This document shows positions 3,964 to 14,764 of a DNA stretch of 64,000 nt, piece after piece. A program made the translations under genes and the position numbers. Position 1 is the stretch's first letter, and each line of letters opens with the position of its first letter. This DNA is from Candidatus Pacearchaeota archaeon (GTDB lineage: Archaea; Nanobdellota; Nanobdellia; Pacearchaeales; GW2011-AR1), in NCBI GenBank assembly GCA_018304105.1, contig JAGVWX010000020.1, positions 97,494-161,493 of the forward strand, written 5' to 3'. The notes below the pieces were generated by a model. The model did not search any database. It saw only the letters and a program-made list of their open reading frames with translations, and had not been told where the DNA came from.

Positions 3964-5211
3964 ATGGGGTTTTTCGATTTTCTCAGAAAATCTAACGAAA
4001 AAGAAGTCCTAGTTGAAACTCTGAAACTTTCAGAAGTCGAATTTTTCCTGGACAAAAAATTAGAAGAGCTAAATCATAAACTAGGTCTAAGCATTCAGCA
4101 GACAAAAACAGAAATCTCAGAAGAAATAAGCAGGCTAAAAAACAATCTCGAAAATTTAGCAAATGCAGAGCTCAAAAATAAAGAGATTCCTGAAAGAGCA
4201 AAGCAAATCATGGAAGGGAACAGGCAAATATATATTCAGAAAACAAACACGCTTATTGAAAAAATAATATTTCCTGAAAAATCCAGAGACCTTCTCGAGT
4301 TCACAAAAACCTTTGACAAAGAGTTGGACGCTTTCGACAAGGGCATCTCAAAAAGCCATCACATCATGGAGGAATTCTTCGTTGAAAAAGCGAGCGTCAT
4401 TGCTGTCAGCATAAAAAAAATAGACAAACTTTTCAAAGAATTAAAGAGCGCTATAGAAAGCTCAGACATTTGGAAAATAGAAAAACTAAAGGAACAATCT
4501 TCTATCATAATAAAAGAAATAAGCAGAAAAGAAGAAAACAAAAATACCCTTAACATTTTAGACAAGGAAATCATAACTCTCGGGAAAGAAGTAAAAATTA
4601 AGGAAGACCAAATAGCCAAATTTAAACAAGAAGATTCTTACAGGAAGTATACCTCACAGTTAAATTCTAAAGAAAAAGCCCAGCAAGAACTAATCAATCT
4701 CGAGTCAGTTTTAAGGCACTCCTTTTCAGAGATAGAGCCAGCCTTGAAAAAATACGAAAATCTTTCTCAAAACAAACTTGCTAAAAAATATCTTGAAGAC
4801 CCTCTTGGCGCTTTGCTTGAAGACCAAGAGCTCGAAATCTCAACAATATTTGACGCAATAAAGAAAGCCATAATAAAAGGCGAAATTACACTTAAGGATA
4901 CAAAGAAAGACAGGGTAATGAATGAACTTTTTATTTTAAATAAGGAATTTTTCCAGAATTTCCTAAGCAAACGAACAGAACTCCGAGCCAATCTTTCAGA
5001 AACAACTAAGGAAATAGAAAATTCCTTAATAATAAAATCTCTAGACGAGCTAGAAAAATCACTCTTCCAAGACAAGGCATCTCTTCATGAAAAGAAGTCT
5101 GGCTTTGAAAAGTTGAATAAAGACATTGAAACATTAAATCTCTCAGACCTAGTATCCTCGCTTGAAAGTGAGTTTAAAGAAAAATTAAACCTGAATGTTA
5201 AGATAATTTAA
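3964..5211 (+). CDS. K/E-rich coiled-coil protein, unknown function
   Basis: 415-aa ORF with heptad-like low-complexity K/E/L/I composition. It lies on the opposite strand between S7 and EF-2. Confidence 0.55.
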   Translation: MGFFDFLRKSNEKEVLVETLKLSEVEFFLDKKLEELNHKLGLSIQQTKTEISEEISRLKNNLENLANAELKNKEIPERAKQIMEGNRQIYIQKTNTLIEKIIFPEKSRDLLEFTKTFDKELDAFDKGISKSHHIMEEFFVEKASVIAVSIKKIDKLFKELKSAIESSDIWKIEKLKEQSSIIIKEISRKEENKNTLNILDKEIITLGKEVKIKEDQIAKFKQEDSYRKYTSQLNSKEKAQQELINLESVLRHSFSEIEPALKKYENLSQNKLAKKYLEDPLGALLEDQELEISTIFDAIKKAIIKGEITLKDTKKDRVMNELFILNKEFFQNFLSKRTELRANLSETTKEIENSLIIKSLDELEKSLFQDKASLHEKKSGFEKLNKDIETLNLSDLVSSLESEFKEKLNLNVKII

Positions 5212-5819
5212 CGTGCTGAGTCCGCCTGTTTCTCAGCCTCATTCTTCTTTGACATTGCATAGCTTTCCATATTCTGGCTTGCTGCTTTCATTATTTCATC
5301 CGCTAATGAATCAACCATTTTCTTTTTCTTTCCAAAGCATCTGTTGTAAGCTCCCTGAACCATCCATCTTATCGCCAGGTCAACTCTCCTCATCGGCGAA
5401 GTGTCGACTGACTGCGGATATCTTGCGCCTCCGTGCTCAATGACAGTAATCTCGTCTCGTGGCGAGCCGTTCTCAATCGCCCTCACAAGAACCTGAATCG
5501 GATTTTCCCCGGTTTTTTTCTCAACTATCTTCATTATCTCAATCACCATGCTCATATTTTTGTTGTACTTTCCAGACGCCCAGCTTGTTATGATTCTGTG
5601 TTTCTTTCCAACATGCCCTGGAGTTGCAATCCTGTTGGCAAATCTTTCCATCAAGCCGACTCTCGCCTTTCCAAATCTGTTCAAGTTTCTGCCTTGCGAC
5701 TTCAGCAAAAGTCTCGGCTCAAGATTTATGTACGGCTTCAGCGCAGGATCTTTTATCTCGATGTTCGCAACATCAAACATGTCGAATAGTTTCATTTGCT
5801 GGGTTGTTTGTTCTACCAT
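5208..5819 (-). CDS. rps7: 30S ribosomal protein uS7
   Basis: 203 aa with typical archaeal S7 segments (GKKHRIITSWASGKY, ENGSPRDEITVIEHGGARY). Confidence 0.95.
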   Translation of the reverse strand: MVEQTTQQMKLFDMFDVANIEIKDPALKPYINLEPRLLLKSQGRNLNRFGKARVGLMERFANRIATPGHVGKKHRIITSWASGKYNKNMSMVIEIMKIVEKKTGENPIQVLVRAIENGSPRDEITVIEHGGARYPQSVDTSPMRRVDLAIRWMVQGAYNRCFGKKKKMVDSLADEIMKAASQNMESYAMSKKNEAEKQADSAR

Positions 5820-6124
5820 TATGCAACGACCTCCAATTCCTCATAACCTGCCGCTTTTCTCATAGCAATCGGTCCAAAATCTTCTTTTGAAACTAATTGT
5901 TTGTATCTTTGCATTGAAACTTTCGTCACAAAATCAGCAACATTCCTTCCATTTTCGGTTCTCTGATTATAAACCCCTATTACTCTTCCATAATCTACAA
6001 CATTGTCCTCGTGGGGAAACCAATCGCCATCATTTCCAATTCTAAGGACTCTCAGTTTATCTCCAACTCGCGGTATGCTGTCACCTTCAATATCAACAAA
6101 ACTCAAAAAAACACCGATGCTCAT
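5819..6124 (-). CDS. orphan 101-aa ORF inserted between uS12 and uS7
   Basis: Its start ATG overlaps the uS12 stop (ATGA at 6124-6121). Its stop overlaps the S7 start (TAATG at 5819). No family recognised. Confidence 0.5.
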   Translation of the reverse strand: MSIGVFLSFVDIEGDSIPRVGDKLRVLRIGNDGDWFPHEDNVVDYGRVIGVYNQRTENGRNVADFVTKVSMQRYKQLVSKEDFGPIAMRKAAGYEELEVVA

Positions 6125-6545
6125 CTTCTTCCCTTCTCAATCTTTCCTTTGACAAGTCTCTTCAAAGGCTGATCGTTTACTTTAATTACTCTTATCTCCC
6201 TTGGAACGTCCCTGCTTTCCGCCAATTCTTTCGATTATAACTTCATCGTGTTCATCCACAAACTTCTGCGCGAGATTTCCCGGAATGAACGCGCCAACTT
6301 GAATTCCATTTTTAACGAGCTGTACTTTGCAGCATTTCCTCATCGCGGAGTTTGGCTGCGCCGCCTCTTTCTGAAACTTTTCAATCACAATTCCCTTCGC
6401 CTGGCTAGAGCCTCCAAGCGGGTCCGATTTTATTTTGAGATTAAGCATTTTCGCATTATACATCTTATCGGCCCACCTAAACTGTTTTGGCCCACCTAAA
6501 CTGTTTTCTCTTCTTCGCTAATTTTCTAGCTCCCATCAATCCCAT
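6121..6545 (-). pseudogene. rps12: 30S ribosomal protein uS12 with two reading-frame disruptions
   Basis: Three collinear pieces. [18 protein letters not shown] runs from the ATG at 6545. [52 protein letters not shown]...[11 protein letters not shown] is track ORF 6182-6463. [24 protein letters not shown]-stop lies in the +1 frame and ends at 6121. Total length is 425 nt; removing the 19-nt duplication leaves 406 nt, which is 1 mod 3. Confidence 0.85.
6470..6507. repeat. perfect 19-bp tandem duplication (GGCCCACCTAAACTGTTTT x2) inside uS12
   Basis: Read directly. Copies are at 6470-6488 and 6489-6507. Removing one copy restores ...[24 protein letters not shown]. Confidence 0.95.
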
Positions 6546-6614: not shown

Positions 6615-6827
6615 ATGATGCCGCCATTTAAAATAAGAGAAGCAGAAATGAGGAGCAGAACAAAAAATCTTATTTCATTGATATCAGGAATAATTTTCAT
6701 ACTTGTTGGATTGAGCGGTACAATTATTAATTTACCGGCATCCAAACCAATTATCATAATACCTATTGTATCCCTTGTTATTGGAGCAATCCTTGCTATT
6801 CTTGGCGGATTAGAGAAATGGCAATAA
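6615..6827 (+). CDS. small membrane protein (70 aa)
   Basis: Two hydrophobic helices. Lies on the opposite strand between uS12 and nusA. Confidence 0.45.
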   Translation: MMPPFKIREAEMRSRTKNLISLISGIIFILVGLSGTIINLPASKPIIIIPIVSLVIGAILAILGGLEKWQ

Positions 6828-7108
6828 ATAAGGATTTAGCCTTATTAAATTTAAAATATCAAGATTATTTAACTTATATCGGAGTAATCTGGACTGTTGC
6901 TATTTCCTTTTTTGTCGCAATTGTTTCTTATCTTTTGGTATCCATACCTAATTTATCTTTCTTAAGGATTACAATCGGATTGTTAATTTTAGTTTTTATC
7001 GAGATAGCGTTCATAGCCATTTACTTTTTCTTAAATACTGAAAAGAACCGCATCAAAGAAAAGATTAGCCATCTCTCCTCGGGAGTATATTGTCCTTCTT
7101 ATCCCTAA
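6818..7108 (+). CDS. small membrane protein (96 aa)
   Basis: Two or three hydrophobic helices. Overlaps the previous ORF by 10 nt. Confidence 0.45.
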   Translation: MAINKDLALLNLKYQDYLTYIGVIWTVAISFFVAIVSYLLVSIPNLSFLRITIGLLILVFIEIAFIAIYFFLNTEKNRIKEKISHLSSGVYCPSYP

Positions 7109-7521
7109 ATAATCTTCAAATCCAAATTATAAGTATCATGAATTATTTTCTTCAGTTCTAGAAATCTTCTTTTGTTTCTTCCAATCAAAGAAGCCTTGTT
7201 CTGATTGTTGCCTGCAGTTATTGTGACACAGCCGTCCCTTGCCTCAACAGCTTTCGGCCTGATAGGAGAAACAACATCTTCAATAAATCTCTTGATATCT
7301 TCAACACCCTCATCTTCCCGAATTATTCTAATCTTCTTCCCAATTTGTTCTTGAATTCTCCTTATATTCACCGCAGAAGGCCCGATTGCTTTCGAGACCT
7401 CTTCTCTGTTTACCGCAAAGAAAATAACCCCGTTGTGAACAAAACATTTTCTCGTCTTCACTCTGGATGTTCTGTCTAATAGGTTAATGTACCTCATTGC
7501 AGTCATGTCAATAACGCCCAT
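7105..7521 (-). CDS. nusA: archaeal NusA-like (KH-domain) transcription termination factor
   Basis: 138 aa with two KH-like segments (IGPSAVNIRRIQEQIGKKIRI, LIGRNKRRFLELKKI). Position downstream of rpoA is the conserved one. Confidence 0.9.
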   Translation of the reverse strand: MGVIDMTAMRYINLLDRTSRVKTRKCFVHNGVIFFAVNREEVSKAIGPSAVNIRRIQEQIGKKIRIIREDEGVEDIKRFIEDVVSPIRPKAVEARDGCVTITAGNNQNKASLIGRNKRRFLELKKIIHDTYNLDLKII

Positions 7522-7599: not shown

Positions 7600-10500
7600 T
7601 TATTTTTTCTTCTCGCTCTTCTGTTCTCTTGCCAAAGGCCCAGTGACCTTGACCAGCAATCCAGGCAATCCGGTTCCAACTGGAATCGGCTGGTTAAGCA
7701 AAATGTTTTCAATAACGGACTTAAGCTCGTCCTCTGCGCCCTTTATCGTCGCATTAACGAATTGCTTGTCCGGAGTTTCAAAAGTTGCCCTGGCAAGAAT
7801 GCTTGCCTTGTCAGTGATAATTCCCATTCTCGTTACTCCTTTAACCACTCCGGAAGAAGTCATTGCGTCAGCGACAAGCTGCAGATGCCTTTCATTAATG
7901 TCAAGCCCCTGAGTTTGGATAACATTTTTTATTTCATTGATTATGGTCAGCCTTGCCGCCTCAACTCCAAGCACATTTTTGACATCGTGAATATCGTTGG
8001 AAAATACTTTGTCTCTGTTAACTCCTTTTATTTCCAGGATTTCTTTCAAGTTAGAGCCGTTAGTCAAGATGACAAAGTCTCTGTCTCTTTTCGAAACTAT
8101 GACTTGCGGAACTCCTTTGACACCAGAAACTATCGTTTCTTTTAATTTTCCCTTCAGCTTGTACATTTCTTTGAAGCCAATTTCCGGAAGCGGAACAATT
8201 ATTTTATTTCCATTGATATTGACTTTAAACTTCTTGTCTATCAGCTTATCAGCAATTTTCTGGACGCCCGCATGCGTTCTTCTAACCGCTTCAGAATCTA
8301 ATTCTATCTCAATCTTTTTATTTCCAAAGTCAAGATTAATCTCAGACAAAACTTCTTCAAGCTTCACTTCTTTTATTTTTTCTGCCAAAATCCTTGCTTC
8401 CTTTTCATTGTTATGGTCTTTGTCAAGATAAATCTCCATCATCGGAGTTGAAGGTTGTTTTCTCGCGTCAAGAATTTCAATTAATCTCGGCAAACCCAGC
8501 GTAATCTGCATTTGCGCGACTCCAGCGTGGTGGAAAACGTTCAGGACCATCTGAGTTGAAGCCTCGCCAAAAGATTGTGCAGTTACAACGCCGACGGCCT
8601 CGCCAGGACAAATCTTGTCATCCTTCAGGTGAAGCTTGGCAACATCTTTTCCATCATATCCGTACACAAATTGAACAACATTTTCTGAAGCGTCTCTTAC
8701 AGTTCCATCGTATTCAACTTTCAAGTCCTGCAATGCGCTGACAAGTCGTCTGTACAAATAACCGGACTTAGGAGTTCTCAAAGCAGTATCCATCTGGCTG
8801 TCTCTTCCCGTTATCGCTCCAAAGAAAAATTCTGTTGGCTTGAGTCCTTTCAGGTAAGAAGATTTGATGAATCCTCTGGACTCTGAGCTAAGGTCACCTT
8901 TCTTGAAGAAAGATAATGTTCTGTCATTATATCCAAAACTAATTCTTCCATTCCATAAAACCTGCTGTCCGACGCAGCAGCCCATCTGTGTGATGTTCGT
9001 GATTCCGCCGCCGCTTCCGGATTTTATCATCATATTTATGTTTGCCTCCGGAGGCAGATTGACTTTAACAATATCTCCAACATCTGTTCTAACAGCGTTC
9101 AATATCTGCATAATCTTTGTTTCTCTTGTCTCTTCTGCGGTCTTCCCAGGCACAGCTTCCAAATTTCCAGAATTGTATTCTTCAATAACTTCCACCGTTC
9201 TTTTCTCTGCCTTCTCGATAATTTCTTTAGTAATCTCCTTAACTTTGTCCAGTACATCAATGTCGTGAAGTGAAAGAGTGTAGCCAACTCTGCTCAAATA
9301 CGAAGTTCCAAGCGTGAATGCCTTGTTGATTGTGTCTACCGCAACCTCTCTTCCCATCTCTCTATCAACTACTTTTACAAGCTCTCCATCTTCTGCACCA
9401 AACGTTTTGCTTCCGGTAATTATTGAAGGAACTGTAATTTTAGCTCCCTTCGGAATGACCTGCGCAAAAACTTCTGTTCCAGAAATTTCTTTCTTCTTAA
9501 TAGTATTCATCACGTTTGCAGAAAATAGCAGCTGATCTGCAAGACCCTTGTCCACAGTCGCTTTTCCAAGAAGATACGCGCCAGTAACAGCATCGGCAAT
9601 CGTTCCAACAAGGTTGGTATTATTTTTTGATGAGATTATATTCTTATTAATGTCCAACAAAATCTTTGCTTCAGAAAGCGCTTCTTCATTTTGCGGGCTG
9701 TGAATGTTCATTTCGTCTCCATCAAAGTCAGCGTTGTAAGGCGCAGCCGCGGCCGGATTTAGCCTGAAAGTCCTTCCAGGTAAAACTTTAACATAATGTG
9801 CCATCAAGCCCTGCTTGTGCAAGGTCGGGTGTCTGTTGAACAAGACAATATCGCCGTCTCTCAAATGTCTTTCAATTTTATATCCAGGCTGGATTTCGTT
9901 CATGATTTCTTCCTTCAGGTCTTCAGATAATCTCTTTCTTCTTCCGTCTGGTCTTATCACGTTATTCGCTCCAGGGTAATCAGTTCCCCTTTTAACAAGT
10001 TCCTTCATTTCTTCAAGATTTGTCGTCGTCACAGATTCCGCAACAGTGATGATTCTAGCAATCTGCTCAGGCACGCCAATTTCATTAATCTTCAAGTAAG
10101 GGTCTGGCGAAACAACCGACCTCGCAGAATAATTTACTCTCTTGCCAGCAAGATTATGCCTGATTCTTCCTTCTTTGCCTTTGATTCTTTCTGTTATTGT
10201 CTTCAATGGCTGTCCAGACCTGTGTCTCGCAGGGGGAATTCTTGTAACATTATTATCATAAAATGTGGTTATGTGATATTGCAGCAAGTCCCACAAATCT
10301 TCAATGATTACTTCTGGAGCTCCCGCGTTTAGGTTTTCCCACAATCTTTGATTAGCTCTGATTATGTCTGAAAGTTTGTGAGTCAAGTCGTCTTCGCTTC
10401 TTTCTCCGGTGTCAAGAGTAATCGACGGCCTGACAGTAACAGACGGCACAAGAAGCAAAGATATAACTGCTCTCTCCGGCCTCGCGGTCTTAGTGTTAAT

Positions 10501-11037
10501 CCCGATTTTCTTAAGTTCGTCATCAGAAATATTGACAAGTCTTTCTCTCACTTCAATCGGATTCAATCTTTTTTTGTCTATGAAAAAGTTTGTTGGTTTC
10601 TCAAGCTTTACTCTATCGATGTTCTCGTTGCAATGCGGGCATTTCTTCGCGTCTCTTGCTTTCTTCGCCCTTTCAGCAGGCGTCAGTCCTTTCTGCTTTT
10701 CATCTGACAGCGTCAACTTACCGCAATGAGGGCAGAAACTTCTCAAGCACAATTCCATCAAAGGAATATACTTGATATGCAAAACCGGTCTCGCAAGCTC
10801 GATGCTTCCGGGATGTCCGGGACATTCCTTAACTCTCTTCCCGCAAGTCCTGCATCTTACTCCCGGGTCAATCGCTCCAAGCCGCAAGTCCATAAGGCCT
10901 CCATCAACCGGGAAACCGTCAATGTCATAAAGTTCCGGAGTCACAACTTTCACCGCGCTAATTTTCTTAATCTGGTCCGGACTAAGCAAACTGAAACTCA
11001 GGCTTCTGACTTGTTTTCTCGAATATCTATTGCTCAT
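7600..11037 (-). CDS. rpoA: DNA-directed RNA polymerase subunit A, with A' and A'' encoded as one continuous ORF
   Basis: N-terminus has the zinc motifs RCRTCGKRVKECPGHPG, plus NADFDGDEMN. A''-type sequence (KICPGEAVGVVTAQSFGEASTQM...GLPRLIEILDARK...FETPDKQF) follows in frame with no stop or start around 8560-8700. The ATG at 11037 is preferred over the track TTG at 11043. Confidence 0.95.
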   Translation of the reverse strand: MSNRYSRKQVRSLSFSLLSPDQIKKISAVKVVTPELYDIDGFPVDGGLMDLRLGAIDPGVRCRTCGKRVKECPGHPGSIELARPVLHIKYIPLMELCLRSFCPHCGKLTLSDEKQKGLTPAERAKKARDAKKCPHCNENIDRVKLEKPTNFFIDKKRLNPIEVRERLVNISDDELKKIGINTKTARPERAVISLLLVPSVTVRPSITLDTGERSEDDLTHKLSDIIRANQRLWENLNAGAPEVIIEDLWDLLQYHITTFYDNNVTRIPPARHRSGQPLKTITERIKGKEGRIRHNLAGKRVNYSARSVVSPDPYLKINEIGVPEQIARIITVAESVTTTNLEEMKELVKRGTDYPGANNVIRPDGRRKRLSEDLKEEIMNEIQPGYKIERHLRDGDIVLFNRHPTLHKQGLMAHYVKVLPGRTFRLNPAAAAPYNADFDGDEMNIHSPQNEEALSEAKILLDINKNIISSKNNTNLVGTIADAVTGAYLLGKATVDKGLADQLLFSANVMNTIKKKEISGTEVFAQVIPKGAKITVPSIITGSKTFGAEDGELVKVVDREMGREVAVDTINKAFTLGTSYLSRVGYTLSLHDIDVLDKVKEITKEIIEKAEKRTVEVIEEYNSGNLEAVPGKTAEETRETKIMQILNAVRTDVGDIVKVNLPPEANINMMIKSGSGGGITNITQMGCCVGQQVLWNGRISFGYNDRTLSFFKKGDLSSESRGFIKSSYLKGLKPTEFFFGAITGRDSQMDTALRTPKSGYLYRRLVSALQDLKVEYDGTVRDASENVVQFVYGYDGKDVAKLHLKDDKICPGEAVGVVTAQSFGEASTQMVLNVFHHAGVAQMQITLGLPRLIEILDARKQPSTPMMEIYLDKDHNNEKEARILAEKIKEVKLEEVLSEINLDFGNKKIEIELDSEAVRRTHAGVQKIADKLIDKKFKVNINGNKIIVPLPEIGFKEMYKLKGKLKETIVSGVKGVPQVIVSKRDRDFVILTNGSNLKEILEIKGVNRDKVFSNDIHDVKNVLGVEAARLTIINEIKNVIQTQGLDINERHLQLVADAMTSSGVVKGVTRMGIITDKASILARATFETPDKQFVNATIKGAEDELKSVIENILLNQPIPVGTGLPGLLVKVTGPLAREQKSEKKK

Positions 11038-11314
11038 ATTCAAATCCTTCTGGGCTATCCAGAATATCGTCCCACTCTTCTACTATTGAACGAAATTCTC
11101 CAATTAATATTGGTTCATTTTTATAGAGAAGGCCAACTCTTCTAGCCAAGGCAAATTCGTCAGTATCACTATCAACAATTCCAACGCTGTTATTAATTGC
11201 TCTAACAGCAATATGTCTATCCCCGTAGCCTGCTTCTCTTAGCGCCTCTGCATTACCTAATACATATTTTCTTGCTCTTTCAAATTCCATCGCTTTTGTT
11301 CTATTGCTCATATT
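11026..11314 (-). repeat. 15-bp direct repeat pair (AATATGAGCAATAGA on the coding strand) at 11026-11040 and 11300-11314
   Basis: The same 15-mer forms both the rpoB-stop/ORF94-start junction and the ORF94-stop/rpoA-start junction. Period is 274 nt. Confidence 0.95.
11027..11311 (-). CDS. orphan 94-aa ORF inserted between rpoB and rpoA
   Basis: Start overlaps the rpoB stop and stop overlaps the rpoA start. Acidic C-terminus. No family recognised. Confidence 0.5.
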   Translation of the reverse strand: MSNRTKAMEFERARKYVLGNAEALREAGYGDRHIAVRAINNSVGIVDSDTDEFALARRVGLLYKNEPILIGEFRSIVEEWDDILDSPEGFEYEQ

Positions 11315-14300
11315 TGTTCTTCAACTTAAATTTAGTATGTATACCCAATCCCAGTAATTCGTCTACCAAGAGCTTGAATGCATAGGAAAGTTCTATTGGT
11401 TCCGCCTCGCTGCTTCCGCACATCGTGCAGACCGGTTTGTTTCGGATGGCATCTTCATATCCCATATTTCCGCAATCTTGGCAGATGTAGATAATTGTTT
11501 TATCTGAATCGTACCTTTCTTTCAAAAGCAAAGACGCGCCGTGCCCAGCCAAAGCTTGCTGTTCCATTTCTCCAAGTCTTAATCCTCCGCCACGTGCCCT
11601 TCCTTCAATCGGTTGTCTCGTCAGCAAAGCAACTTTTCCGGAAGCCCTCGCATGAATAAGATTCTTTACCATTCTCTTCAGCTTCAAGTAGTACATGCTT
11701 CCGATATAAATCTTGACATCCATTTTCTCTCCGGTTATTCCGTTGTAAGTAGTTTCTTTGCCGTCGTAGCTAAAGCCCATTTCTTGAAGCTGTTCTTCCA
11801 GCTCATTAACTTTAGTTCCCGTAAACGGAGTGCCGTCAACTATTTTTCCAGTTATTGCAGCAGTTTTGCTCGCAAGCAATTCCATTAGGTATCCAACAGT
11901 CATTCTGCTTGGAATTCCGTGTGGATTGAACATCAAGTCAGGTCTTATTCCATTAACTGTGAAAGGAACATCATCATTACATGCAATCATTCCGATAACT
12001 CCCTTCTGTCCGTGCGGTGAAGAATATTTGTCTCCAACTTCTGGAAGCCTGGTGTCTCTGGTTCTGACATCAACAACTTTGTTTCCTTCGCTGTCTACTG
12101 TAATGAAAACCGCGTCCACAGTTCCCCTCTCCCCTTGTCTAACTGCCGAACTAGCTTCCTTCTTAGCTTGTATGCTCAAGTCTCTGGCTTCAGAAAGAAA
12201 TTTCGGCGGCGTAACTTTTCCAATAACCACGTCCCCAGAATCCATGTCGGCTTCAAGATACGCAATCCCATCATCTTCAAGATTTCTATAAACTTCTTCG
12301 GTCCTATATCCCGAAACATCTTTTTCAGGAATAACTATTTCGTCAGATAATCCTCCGGCATATTGCAGTTCGTTTGCAGAATACGGTCTGAAGTATGTGC
12401 TCCTTCCCATTCCTCTGTCAACACTTGCCTTGTTCAGAACAACAGAGTCCTCAATATTGTAACCCTCAAAAGGCATAATCGCTACAACAAGATTTTGTCC
12501 TGAAGGGTAAACATCAAGGGTATCATAAATGAAACTCCTTACCAAAGGTCTCTGCGGATAATGAAGAATCGAAACATCGGTGTCAATTCTCAATAAATAA
12601 TTCGCAGCATAAATTCCTAAGCTCTGCTTATTAGTTTTGCTTCCTCTATGCAGTCTTGGCAGCTGGTCATGGTTAGCATAAGGAACAAGCGAAGTAATCA
12701 CGCCGAATACATCAATAGGATGAACTTCTAAGTGAGTATGTTCAGAATCAAGCTCATCCTCGTCCAGCGAAACATAAGCATTTTCTTCTTCTGCAGCGTC
12801 AATGTATTCGATAATTCCCTTTTCAACCAAATCAGACCACTTGAGTTCTCCCTGTTCCAGTAAAACAATATCTTCACTCTTCAATTTTGAATTTCCGTTT
12901 TCAACGATAATTAATGGCCTCAAAACTCTTCCAACTTCCGAAGAAATCGTAATTTGGTCAAGTGCATCATCATATCTAACACTTATTTGTCCCGGAATTT
13001 CTTTATTCCTCCTTAGTTCTCTCAGTTTCAATGCAAATTCCTTAGGATGCTCGACAAACCCAATAAACTTTCCATTTACAAAAACATCACTTCCCTTAGA
13101 GTTATCTCTTTTCAATCCAGCAGATTCAAACTTCTTGATGGTTGCTTTTTCGTCAAACTCAATCACTGTAGAAATTTTTGCAAGAAGAGCAAGATTCTTT
13201 CTAAGTCCAATTTCAGTTCCCTCCGGAGTTTCAGTTGGGCAGAATCTCCCATAATGTGTCGGATGCAGCGTTCTTGCCTTGAAATTTTCCTGGTCGCCAG
13301 GCAATAGGCTCGTGACTCTTTGCAGCTGCGAAAGAACGTCCAGGTAATTTGTCTTCTGCATGTTTTGCGTAACTCCAGATCTTTCTCCAATCCAGCTTCC
13401 CGTCGCAATCGCGCTTTCAACTCTGTGCGTGAACAGCGTAGACTTAGCAATTGTTTTCAATGAGTAAAATTTCTTTCTCTTTGAAACTTTCTGCAGAGAA
13501 TATTGAATATCCCTAACGAGAATTTTCAGATTGACTCTGAAAAGATCAGACATCAAATCCCCTGAAAGTTTAATTCTTTTGTTAGCATAATGGTCCTTGT
13601 CAGTTCTGATTTTTTTGTCGTCTTTAGCTTTTAGATAGGTTCGCACGAGCCTGCAAAGCGTGATTGCCTTATCTTCTCTGGTCTGTTTGGTAATCCCGAT
13701 GTTCGGCAGCAGGAAAGAATCAATTCTTTGCTTCACCCTGTCAAGAATTTCTTTCTTCGTTCCCTGTATCCCTGATTTTTCCGCTATGAACATCATTGCA
13801 TCTTCAGCATCTTGCAAACTGGCATATTCGTAAAGGTTAACAATCAGGCAATCGTTCTCCATCCCAATGTTCTTTGCAATGTCTGATTCTTTAGTCATGC
13901 CGAGGGCTTTAAGCAAAACCAGAATTGGAATATTCTTCAGCCTGCTGAAAGTCAATTCCAAAATTCCTTCGTTTGTTTCACTGATTGTCGTCGGAATTCT
14001 GTAAGAGCCCCTTTCTGAAAATTCTCTCAAAGTCAGTCCCTGTCTGCCTTCTTCAATAAATGGCTGGTTTGGAGCAAGGTCTTCAGACATAACAATTACT
14101 CTTTCGTTTCCGTTGATTATGAAATATCCGCCCTGGTCAAGCTTGTCCATGTAATTTTTTATAAGGTCTTCTTTGCCCATTCCGTATGTCGCGCACTTGG
14201 AGCTTCGGACCATAATTGGAATTCTTCCAACTTCAACTTCCGAGCTTTCTGCTTGATTTTCATATTTGACGCTTAGCTCGACATAAACTGGCGCGGCATA

Positions 14301-14555
14301 AGTTAAATTTCTCAGCTTTGCTTCGATTGGAGTTATTTTGCTGACACTTCCATCGGCCTCGATTATATCCGGCTCGCCAACGCGCACCTTTCCAAACTTT
14401 ATCTCAACGTCTTGATCAGAAAGGGTTTCGTTAATTTCTTCGACGATTTGCTGAATCCTGTTCCCAATAAAATCATTAAATGAAAGAATGTTAGATTCAA
14501 CTAAAGAATGTTGCTTTAGATATTTCTCCACTAAAATATTTTTTCTTTTATCCAT
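11301..14555 (-). CDS. rpoB: DNA-directed RNA polymerase subunit B (unsplit)
   Basis: 1084 aa with conserved RpoB blocks (GDKYSSPHGQKG, MFNPHGIPSRMTVG, C-terminal Cys4 CQDCG...CTMCG). Confidence 0.97.
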   Translation of the reverse strand: MDKRKNILVEKYLKQHSLVESNILSFNDFIGNRIQQIVEEINETLSDQDVEIKFGKVRVGEPDIIEADGSVSKITPIEAKLRNLTYAAPVYVELSVKYENQAESSEVEVGRIPIMVRSSKCATYGMGKEDLIKNYMDKLDQGGYFIINGNERVIVMSEDLAPNQPFIEEGRQGLTLREFSERGSYRIPTTISETNEGILELTFSRLKNIPILVLLKALGMTKESDIAKNIGMENDCLIVNLYEYASLQDAEDAMMFIAEKSGIQGTKKEILDRVKQRIDSFLLPNIGITKQTREDKAITLCRLVRTYLKAKDDKKIRTDKDHYANKRIKLSGDLMSDLFRVNLKILVRDIQYSLQKVSKRKKFYSLKTIAKSTLFTHRVESAIATGSWIGERSGVTQNMQKTNYLDVLSQLQRVTSLLPGDQENFKARTLHPTHYGRFCPTETPEGTEIGLRKNLALLAKISTVIEFDEKATIKKFESAGLKRDNSKGSDVFVNGKFIGFVEHPKEFALKLRELRRNKEIPGQISVRYDDALDQITISSEVGRVLRPLIIVENGNSKLKSEDIVLLEQGELKWSDLVEKGIIEYIDAAEEENAYVSLDEDELDSEHTHLEVHPIDVFGVITSLVPYANHDQLPRLHRGSKTNKQSLGIYAANYLLRIDTDVSILHYPQRPLVRSFIYDTLDVYPSGQNLVVAIMPFEGYNIEDSVVLNKASVDRGMGRSTYFRPYSANELQYAGGLSDEIVIPEKDVSGYRTEEVYRNLEDDGIAYLEADMDSGDVVIGKVTPPKFLSEARDLSIQAKKEASSAVRQGERGTVDAVFITVDSEGNKVVDVRTRDTRLPEVGDKYSSPHGQKGVIGMIACNDDVPFTVNGIRPDLMFNPHGIPSRMTVGYLMELLASKTAAITGKIVDGTPFTGTKVNELEEQLQEMGFSYDGKETTYNGITGEKMDVKIYIGSMYYLKLKRMVKNLIHARASGKVALLTRQPIEGRARGGGLRLGEMEQQALAGHGASLLLKERYDSDKTIIYICQDCGNMGYEDAIRNKPVCTMCGSSEAEPIELSYAFKLLVDELLGLGIHTKFKLKNKYEQ

Positions 14556-14764
14556 CAGAGAACAACCGCCCTGTAATACGTTTCCAGTTTATCTCCTTCT
14601 TTTCTTTCAAGTCTTATCACGTCGCCGACATTGCATCCTTCCGGCAAAGCCGGGTCATTAGCGTGTATTTTTGGCAGTTGCGAAAGAGAAATATTGTACC
14701 TCTCAAGTAGCCTTTTTACCTCGTCTGCTTTCAATTTTGTATGTTTGGGCTGTAATATGTGCAT
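14555..14764 (-). CDS. rpoH: RNA polymerase subunit H (Rpb5-like)
   Basis: 69 aa with HTKLKADEVKRLLERYNISLSQLPKI...DPALP...GDVIRLER. First gene of the rpoH-B-A operon. Confidence 0.9.
   Translation of the reverse strand: MHILQPKHTKLKADEVKRLLERYNISLSQLPKIHANDPALPEGCNVGDVIRLERKEGDKLETYYRAVVL

Follow-up and report, generated by a model that had tools for sequence, protein, structure and literature searches.

Few gene arrangements of archaea are as stable as the core RNA polymerase operon. A 64-kb stretch of a Pacearchaeota (DPANN) genome, called the window here in its full length, raises the question of how a small additional gene came to stand between the genes of the two largest polymerase subunits, rpoB and rpoA, and what its product might do there. 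The gene, an open reading frame (ORF) of 94 codons that we call ORF94, is bracketed by two identical copies of a 15-bp sequence. Our best explanation, to which we give about even chances when it is taken as a whole, is that a gene related to the Pfam family DUF5678 entered this junction by a duplicative insertion and has an accessory role linked to RNA polymerase.

An exact repeat of the rpoB-rpoA junction

The window contains the 15-mer TCTATTGCTCATATT (plus strand; AATATGAGCAATAGA on the coding strand) at exactly two places, 11026-11040 and 11300-11314, whose starts are separated by 274 nt. Base composition predicts about 0.0004 further exact copies, and in a cross-locus control, where junction 1 of one locus was compared with junction 2 of another, 0 of 756 pairs shared at least 15 nt. 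Copy 1 encodes the end of rpoB (..KYEQ-TAG) together with the start of ORF94 (ATG AGC AAT AGA, MSNR), and copy 2 encodes the end of ORF94 (..EYEQ-TAG) together with the start of rpoA (MSNRY), each of the two stop/start overlaps measuring 11 nt. Codons 1-4 of ORF94 (MSNR) are the duplicated rpoA start, its last three codons and stop (YEQ*) are the duplicated rpoB end, and the 274-bp unit consists of 259 bp of unique sequence plus one copy of the repeat. The repeat, its spacing and the two gene junctions that it forms had already been described in an earlier, sequence-only reading of the window, and exact searches and translations bore out every detail. The operon lies entirely on the minus strand, in the order rpoH, rpoB, ORF94, rpoA and a nusA-like KH gene:

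14555-14764, minus strand: rpoH (Rpo5), first gene of the operon (Pfam RNA_pol_Rpb5_C, E=5e-16)
11301-14555, minus strand: rpoB (Rpo2, unsplit, 1084 amino acids (aa)), ending KNKYEQ-TAG (Pfam Rpb2 domains 1-7; translation)
11300-11314, minus strand: repeat copy 1, AATATGAGCAATAGA, rpoB stop overlapping the ORF94 start (exact match)
11027-11311, minus strand: ORF94, a DUF5678-related small protein of 94 codons (translation; family hidden Markov model; AlphaFold2)
11041-11299, minus strand: unique inserted segment of 259 bp, absent from the relatives L002 and L003 (three-way DNA alignment)
11026-11040, minus strand: repeat copy 2, ORF94 stop overlapping the rpoA start (exact match)
7600-11037, minus strand: rpoA (Rpo1, A' and A'' fused), starting MSNRY with its ATG at 11037 and its stop at 7600 (Pfam Rpb1 domains 1-5; translation)
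7105-7521, minus strand: nusA-like KH-domain gene, downstream member of the operon (Pfam KH_5, E=4e-7)

The fused A'+A'' form of rpoA (about 1145 aa) is found in the window lineage and its relatives, and on one related metagenome contig (L091, 24-2769) rpoB is split in two genes. Beside the repeat, an 8-mer, AGAACAAA (window 11296-11322, minus strand), is present just upstream of the TATG of copy 1 and again across the boundary between repeat and insert (..AGAACAAATATGAGCAATAGAACAAAAGC..); in DNA so rich in AT it could be due to chance, or it could be a vestige of how the insertion happened.

Empty sites and the direction of the event

One genome per species was scanned, which gave 80 Pacearchaeota loci with RpoB C-terminal identities of 72-92% (the window is L001). 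The nearest sampled relatives, L002 (UBA73) and L003, have a single uninterrupted copy of the junction, aacaAATATGAGCAATAAatat, in which KYEQ-TAA overlaps ATG AGC AAT AAA. In a three-way DNA alignment of these loci with the window a 274-bp indel stands out cleanly, and on both sides homology extends as far as the repeat: the left flank of copy 1 matches the left flank of the empty site in both relatives, and the right flank of copy 2 matches the right flank of the empty site in L003 and, less closely, in L002. This agrees with the earlier proposal that an ancestral rpoB-stop/rpoA-start overlap was duplicated, with the 274-bp unit now between the copies and the stop/start coupling arrangement kept on both sides, the 11-nt overlaps being intact.

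Identity to L002 and L003 is 0.78-0.84 beside the insert against 0.78-0.79 overall; the sequence that borders the insert is no more divergent than the rest, so nothing suggests that the flanks were imported. This bears on the hypothesis that a ready-made cassette was imported from another Pacearchaeote by homologous recombination in the rpoB and rpoA flanks, with the repeat inherited from the donor. Such conserved flanks could mediate exchange, the family is patchy across hosts, and the best matches of ORF94 (39-41% identity, P0008-10) occur in hosts more distant than its neighbours, with 74-80% RpoB identity. However, apart from the lack of a divergent patch relative to L002 and L003, both repeat copies match the window lineage's own junction, homologous recombination would have to work at the low DNA identity that separates the lineages (about 78% or less), and a duplicative insertion would still be required at the origin of the cassette. 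We consider import highly improbable.

The repeat copies also speak to the age of the event. They are identical at 15/15 positions in the window, whereas the junctions of L001 to L005 differ from one another at 1-4/15 positions and the two junction copies of L005 differ at 4/13. Furthermore, both window copies carry a G (in the rpoB stop TAG and in rpoA codon 4, AGA) at a position that is A (TAA / AAA) in L002, L003, junction 2 of L004, L005 and L008, and since the G is common to both copies, the duplication would be younger than a substitution that is particular to this lineage. The G then takes a single substitution before the duplication, whereas a loss of the gene in L002 and L003 would need parallel changes or gene conversion.

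Loss is the core of a second alternative, in which the gene is an old vertical resident of the junction, the window keeps the ancestral state and L002 and L003 lost the gene by precise recombination between the repeats. Recombination between direct repeats would leave exactly the sequence seen in L002 and L003, and two members of the same clade, L005 and L008, also have a homologue between rpoB and rpoA, where junction 1 again shows the 11-nt overlap; given the fast evolution of the family, the 27-29% identity of ORF94 to these two genes is compatible with orthology. Nonetheless, complete identity of the two copies is unlikely over such a time when other junctions and the L005 copies have diverged as described, and the derived G would have to be accounted for twice. 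In a family tree ORF94 is not grouped with the L005 or L008 genes either, although the tree is weakly resolved and this is weak evidence. Old residence followed by loss thus appears improbable to us, and the comparison of copies and flanks points to a recent duplicative insertion in the window lineage, after its split from the nearest sampled relatives.

Several observations weigh against the insertion reading. Its direction rests on parsimony, with nearest relatives only about 78% identical in DNA and no close pair of empty and filled sites, and a metagenome search for a closer empty-site allele returned only L003's own species. No donor copy of the insert is known, the best homologue being 41% identical. 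Terminal inverted repeats, a transposase at the insert and a second family copy in the window were all looked for and none was found.

Other occupied loci of the clade with the overlapping junction agree with such an event. In-register repeats of the locus's own junction were found in L004 (ATGAACAATA, 10 nt) and, with one mismatch in 12 nt, in L008, while the in-register copy of L005 is diverged; at non-overlapping TAAnATG junctions such repeats are mostly absent. The sequence-only reading had set against an insertion the prospect that sister lineages all carry a homologous gene here without the repeat. The picture proved mixed: homologues do stand at the junction in 15 of the 80 species, mostly without the repeat, but the nearest relatives are empty.

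ORF94 is a genuine gene

ORF94 corresponds to the NCBI protein MBS3077791.1, annotated as 'hypothetical protein' of Candidatus Pacearchaeota archaeon, and the identical protein is indexed in 76 assembly blocks (ENA, JGI, NCBI and Logan). Twenty-four carrier contigs of ORF94 were read, and the single locus returned shows the arrangement of the window, between rpoB and rpoA. Because a repeat of 15 bp is shorter than any assembler k-mer and the protein is indexed in many assemblies, neither the gene nor the repeat is an assembly artefact.

The coding nature of the locus is also supported by evolutionary rates. In two pairs of orthologous junction genes the ratio of nonsynonymous to synonymous substitution rates (dN/dS) was 0.26 and 0.27, and dN was 4-5x that of the adjacent rpoB and rpoA; the junction ORFs were 81% and 65% identical where RpoB was 95% and 93% identical. 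Low dN/dS together with raised dN indicates that the junction genes are real, selected and fast-evolving proteins, and ORF94 is a genuine protein-coding gene. A non-coding RNA was considered and rejected, as no Rfam family matched the insert. We also rejected a diverged tandem duplicate of the rpoB 3' end or the rpoA 5' end, the similarity of the ORF94 core to its flanks being not above that of shuffled controls. The GC content at third codon positions (GC3) of ORF94 is 0.23 against a background of 0.39, within the lowest 4% of 94-codon windows in the long ORFs of this genome, a further point in favour of an insertion in this lineage over a loss in L002 and L003. An in-frame internal ATG (Met8) lies inside the 259-bp insert at the position where family homologues typically begin, so the incoming piece was probably a near-complete coding segment that was completed by the duplicated ends.

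A family related to DUF5678

The protein had been described as an orphan that matches nothing recognisable, a view that sensitive profile comparison overturns. Word-indexed protein searches with ORF94 returned only ORF94 itself, and the same searches with family alignments gave no members beyond those already collected. An exhaustive phmmer search of 1.84 billion representatives yielded 22 matches, 13 of which are small proteins (66-159 aa, mostly 84-103 aa) that can be aligned over their full length. Against a profile of 23 relatives built without it, ORF94 scored 63.5 bits over residues 2-89 (E=1e-12 at Z=1.8e9). The full-length alignment has the motifs YV..N...LR..YG..YIAV, V.D.D.DEF.LA.R, VLIGTI and SPE. 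DUF5678 (PF18929) is matched by 10 of the 24 alignment members over a helix-strand-strand-helix core that corresponds to ORF94 residues ~23-62, and one of them, P0013, scores 32 bits and is the only member above the gathering score of 23.2. ORF94 itself falls below that score and is not a direct member of PF18929, but it is homologous to proteins that match it. On these similarities we place ORF94, as a divergent member, in a fast-evolving family of DUF5678-related proteins of 85-100 aa that extends across Pacearchaeota.

With a 22-sequence family alignment, AlphaFold2 gave a predicted local distance difference test score (pLDDT) of 85 and a predicted template modelling score (pTM) of 0.72, whereas the single-sequence model was poor (pLDDT 59). 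In the predicted fold a pair of helices at the N-terminus leads into a β-hairpin; another helix, a third strand and a last helix come next, and the chain ends in a tail that is predicted to be disordered, is acidic and carries the SPE motif. The isoelectric point is 4.7 and 8 of the last 22 residues are acidic; the product is predicted to be a compact acidic α/β domain with a disordered acidic tail. Neither Foldseek against PDB and BFVD (no match at E<0.1) nor a profile search of PDB sequences with the family (no significant match) recovered a counterpart, and no solved DUF5678 structure turned up. ORF94 matched no Pfam family at E<=1. For 22 family members PADLOC, NCBIfam and PHROGs gave no relevant match, including no defence or antitoxin model, and across Pfam, NCBIfam, PHROGs and PADLOC, run on ORF94 or on 22-24 relatives, DUF5678 was the sole family recovered. 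ORF94 has no nuclease or other catalytic domain in these scans.

One strong phmmer match was set aside. Residues 9-58 of ORF94 (window ~11138-11287) were aligned to TPR_10/TPR_12 units of a 2285-aa TPR protein with E=3e-28 summed over 15 repeats, but we judge this resemblance spurious: the family profile built without ORF94 misses the giant TPR proteins even with filters off, and a TPR fold conflicts with the β strands of the confident model. A toxin-antitoxin or defence module was likewise rejected, since the neighbours are rpoB and rpoA, no partner gene is present and no defence or antitoxin model matched the 22 family members scanned.

Recurrent occupation of the junction in Pacearchaeota

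An insert of at least 100 nt separates rpoB and rpoA in 24 of the 80 species. The 15 that have a family member there, the window's own included, are L001, L005, L008, L009, L018, L021, L025, L026, L039, L043, L044, L049, L059, L067 and L073. A six-frame search of all loci (about 11 kb each, from rpoH to beyond rpoA) detected 20 family domains at the rpoB-rpoA junction and a single one off it, antisense just after rpoA in L029; further junction copies were found on metagenome contigs (P0030 and P0031). The rpoH-rpoB junction has inserts in 4 of 78 loci (L032, L043, L053 and L054; 150-400 nt), and these are not family members. A neighbour-joining tree of RpoB has carriers dispersed over all major clades, always with non-carriers next to them. 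The identity of the ORFs does not follow that of the hosts (r=0.13), that is, it is saturated among carriers, so trees cannot separate vertical from horizontal history.

We also looked up the genomic context of 10 phmmer matches that had not been collected through polymerase loci. Five of the 10 are in an RNA polymerase operon and none is in a ribosomal-protein operon. P0008, P0009, P0010 and P0015 (the same as L059) are at the rpoB-rpoA junction, and P0023 (L098, 392-664) stands between rpoH and rpoB and is coupled to each of them through TAAAATG. The family is strongly, though not obligatorily, linked to the RNA polymerase operon.

Other genes use the same site, among them small ORFs in L030, L045, L053/54, L056 and L070. 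Some loci have junction spacers of 49-72 nt that resemble what decayed inserts would leave behind. In Pacearchaeota the rpoB-rpoA junction is thus occupied again and again, most often by the DUF5678-related family. As far as could be found this has no earlier description: the literature held nothing relevant on DUF5678/PF18929 and nothing on an extra gene in the RNA polymerase operon of DPANN archaea.

A possible course of insertion and expression

We propose that a promoterless coding segment of 259 bp was inserted into the 11-nt overlap of the rpoB stop and the rpoA start, and that the event duplicated 15 bp of the junction. Because the rpoA start lies inside the last rpoB codons, an insertion that did not duplicate the overlap would destroy one of two essential genes, and any survivor must carry the duplication. 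The junction repeat can then be seen both as the footprint of the event and as the reason for its survival, since only duplication of the overlap leaves both genes intact, and it is explained without a dedicated mobile-element mechanism. The duplication may have come from repair of a staggered break, from template switching or from something else.

Once in place, the gene would probably be expressed by termination-reinitiation: ribosomes ending rpoB would re-initiate on ORF94, and those ending ORF94 would re-initiate on rpoA. As copy 2 reproduces the ancestral context, initiation of rpoA should be unchanged. The outcome would be coordinated synthesis of ORF94 at roughly the level of RNA polymerase. 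Most other occupied junctions appear to have found another solution. Upstream of rpoA, at a distance of 4-20 nt, 21 of 32 occupied junctions have a Shine-Dalgarno-like GGAG/GGAGG, as against 0 of 52 empty ones, and whatever the type of the inserted ORF, the motif is embedded in its 3' end (L004-L089; for example L083 1440-1457 and L098 650-667). The codons of SPE(V), CCG GAG GT, often create this motif, and the conserved SPE motif may thus be partly a nucleotide-level signal for the downstream gene. The window junction has no GGAGG-like motif upstream of rpoA, which fits a young insertion still relying on the copied overlap.

Accessory factor or hitchhiker

A protein made between the two largest subunits could act on RNA polymerase or could simply profit from its operon. 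The association with the operon spans two junctions and half of the unbiased sample, with no member in ribosomal-protein operons, and this, the sole lead to a function, suggests a role linked to RNA polymerase. We therefore take it as the leading possibility, at somewhat less than even chances, that ORF94 is a dispensable accessory or regulatory protein acting on RNA polymerase or its assembly. A subunit of the enzyme would be expected to be conserved in presence, which ORF94 is not; its location in the operon, overlapping its neighbours on both sides, is the one expected of a subunit.

A number of observations argue against a function in transcription. The junction is uninterrupted in 52 of the 80 species, the two nearest relatives included, and no fold or family match ties ORF94 to transcription. 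The other half of the unbiased sample (P0006, P0013, P0018, P0020 and P0024) is found in unrelated contexts, some members standing alone. Among these, P0020 (L086, 1337-1624) adjoins an IS240-type DDE transposase and lies immediately upstream of an AAA ATPase, in a neighbourhood that also holds Fic and UPF0175/DUF3368 genes; it comes from the metagenome-assembled genome H51-bin114_1, which is also that of L065, whose own rpoB-rpoA junction is empty. L049 has a tandem array (4709-6125) of five family domains within 1.4 kb, spread over four ORFs of which one is a two-domain fusion, and L021 (6203-6644) and L091 (2774-3261) have two family domains each at the junction. Finally, unrelated cargo occupies the same place: a predicted membrane protein of 89-94 aa (..ILNALFWVFLIISIILIVWKIF..) in L004 (6190-6569), where a 32-aa ORF from the ancestral ATG precedes its gene, and in L006 (6190-6459), and another unrelated membrane protein in L060.

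These observations feed the remaining alternative, which keeps the insertion history but denies the protein any connection with RNA polymerase and takes the gene for a hitchhiker or 'moron' at a tolerant landing pad. By its logic a promoterless mini-gene needs an operon for its expression, and once it stands between two essential, coupled genes a clean loss is difficult. The varied cargo (the membrane proteins as well as the other small ORFs), the spacers that resemble decayed inserts, the members in unrelated contexts, the scatter of carriers over the host tree, the tandem arrays and the atypically low GC3 of ORF94 are all in its favour, as is a second coupled orphan, between the S12 and S7 genes of the same window. 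However, within about 11 kb per locus all but one of the family matches are at rpoB-rpoA, a further member is at a second RNA polymerase junction, no unbiased match fell in the far more numerous ribosomal-protein junctions, and the protein is under purifying selection. As an explanation of the whole locus we find the landing pad somewhat unlikely. On the narrower question of function, we give a hitchhiker without any tie to RNA polymerase roughly the same chance as the accessory role, considering the unrelated contexts, the absence from most species here, the unrelated cargo and the tandem arrays.

The accessory role could be taken a step further. The junction proteins may together be an unrecognised factor of Pacearchaeota, dispensable, fast-evolving, associated with RNA polymerase and made in step with its two largest subunits, a generalisation that we judge rather unlikely. 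If it were true, the patchiness, tandem amplification and fast evolution would speak of a conflict over the polymerase, for instance protection from viral or host inhibitors; alternatively the proteins would be lineage-specific assembly helpers for reduced genomes.

Under either reading the B/A junction is recurrently occupied across a DPANN order, and the window copy is a clean example of a gene threading into an overlapping stop/start junction. The junction family provides the first reproducible genomic association for DUF5678-type proteins and is a candidate lineage-specific transcription factor or subunit in as yet uncultured organisms. Should the protein turn out to be unrelated to RNA polymerase, the case would still illustrate how very small genomes can express new small genes from operon junctions.

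Other small genes of the window

The coupled orphan mentioned above is a 101-aa ORF (MSIGVFLSFVDIEGD...) on the minus strand at 5819-6124, between S12 and S7, with an overlap of about 4 nt with both and a GC3 of 0.29; it had no Pfam match. Between nusA and S12, on the opposite strand, two overlapping small ORFs of 70 and 96 aa lie at 6615-6827 (plus strand) and 6818-7108 (plus strand). Both have weak sub-threshold Pfam matches only and are probably membrane proteins.

Comparison with known systems

DUF5678 is an uncharacterised family of archaea and bacteria, and the relatives of ORF94 match its helix-strand-strand-helix core. Compared with the DUF5678 model, which has 49 positions, the Pacearchaeota proteins are about twice as long; they have in addition two helices at the N-terminus, a third strand and helix and the acidic SPE tail, and location in an RNA polymerase operon is not a described property of the family.

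Small, lineage-restricted subunits or factors of RNA polymerase are well known, such as Rpo13 and Rpo8 in archaea and delta (RpoE of Firmicutes) and epsilon in bacteria. They are small, non-universal and dispensable, and delta has an acidic disordered tail; to our knowledge none of them is encoded between the B and A genes. ORF94 resembles such subunits in being small and non-universal and in its acidic tail, and it is encoded between, and coupled to, the two largest subunits. It differs from them in that it has no similarity to them in sequence or fold, is missing at the locus in most species and has family copies outside the operon.

Free-standing mobile genes or 'morons' between conserved genes, for example the seg/mob homing endonuclease genes of T4-like phages, offer another parallel. 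Like them, the ORF94 family is patchy between two conserved genes, shares its hotspot with varied cargo and would borrow its expression from the host operon. Unlike them, ORF94 has no nuclease or catalytic domain and resides in a cellular archaeal genome, and no homing mechanism is evident.

The arrangement also recalls the target-site duplication of a transposable element or a miniature inverted-repeat transposable element (MITE), in that an exact direct repeat flanks a discrete insert absent from relatives. A MITE or transposon was nevertheless rejected, as the terminal inverted repeats, the transposase and any other copy in the 64 kb are all absent and the insert encodes only the 94-aa protein. 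Fifteen bp is long for a target-site duplication, and here the duplication is functionally required, since it rebuilds both overlapping gene ends.

Finally, as in ordinary stop/start coupling within operons, both ORF94 junctions keep an 11-nt overlap, and uninterrupted relatives use the same overlap, ATGA or TAAnATG. What departs from ordinary coupling is that the signal was apparently copied to thread an extra cistron, whereas most other occupied junctions gained a GGAGG for rpoA in the insert tail. The window requires no new category of event and combines three known kinds, namely duplicative insertion, operon hitchhiking and lineage-specific small proteins.

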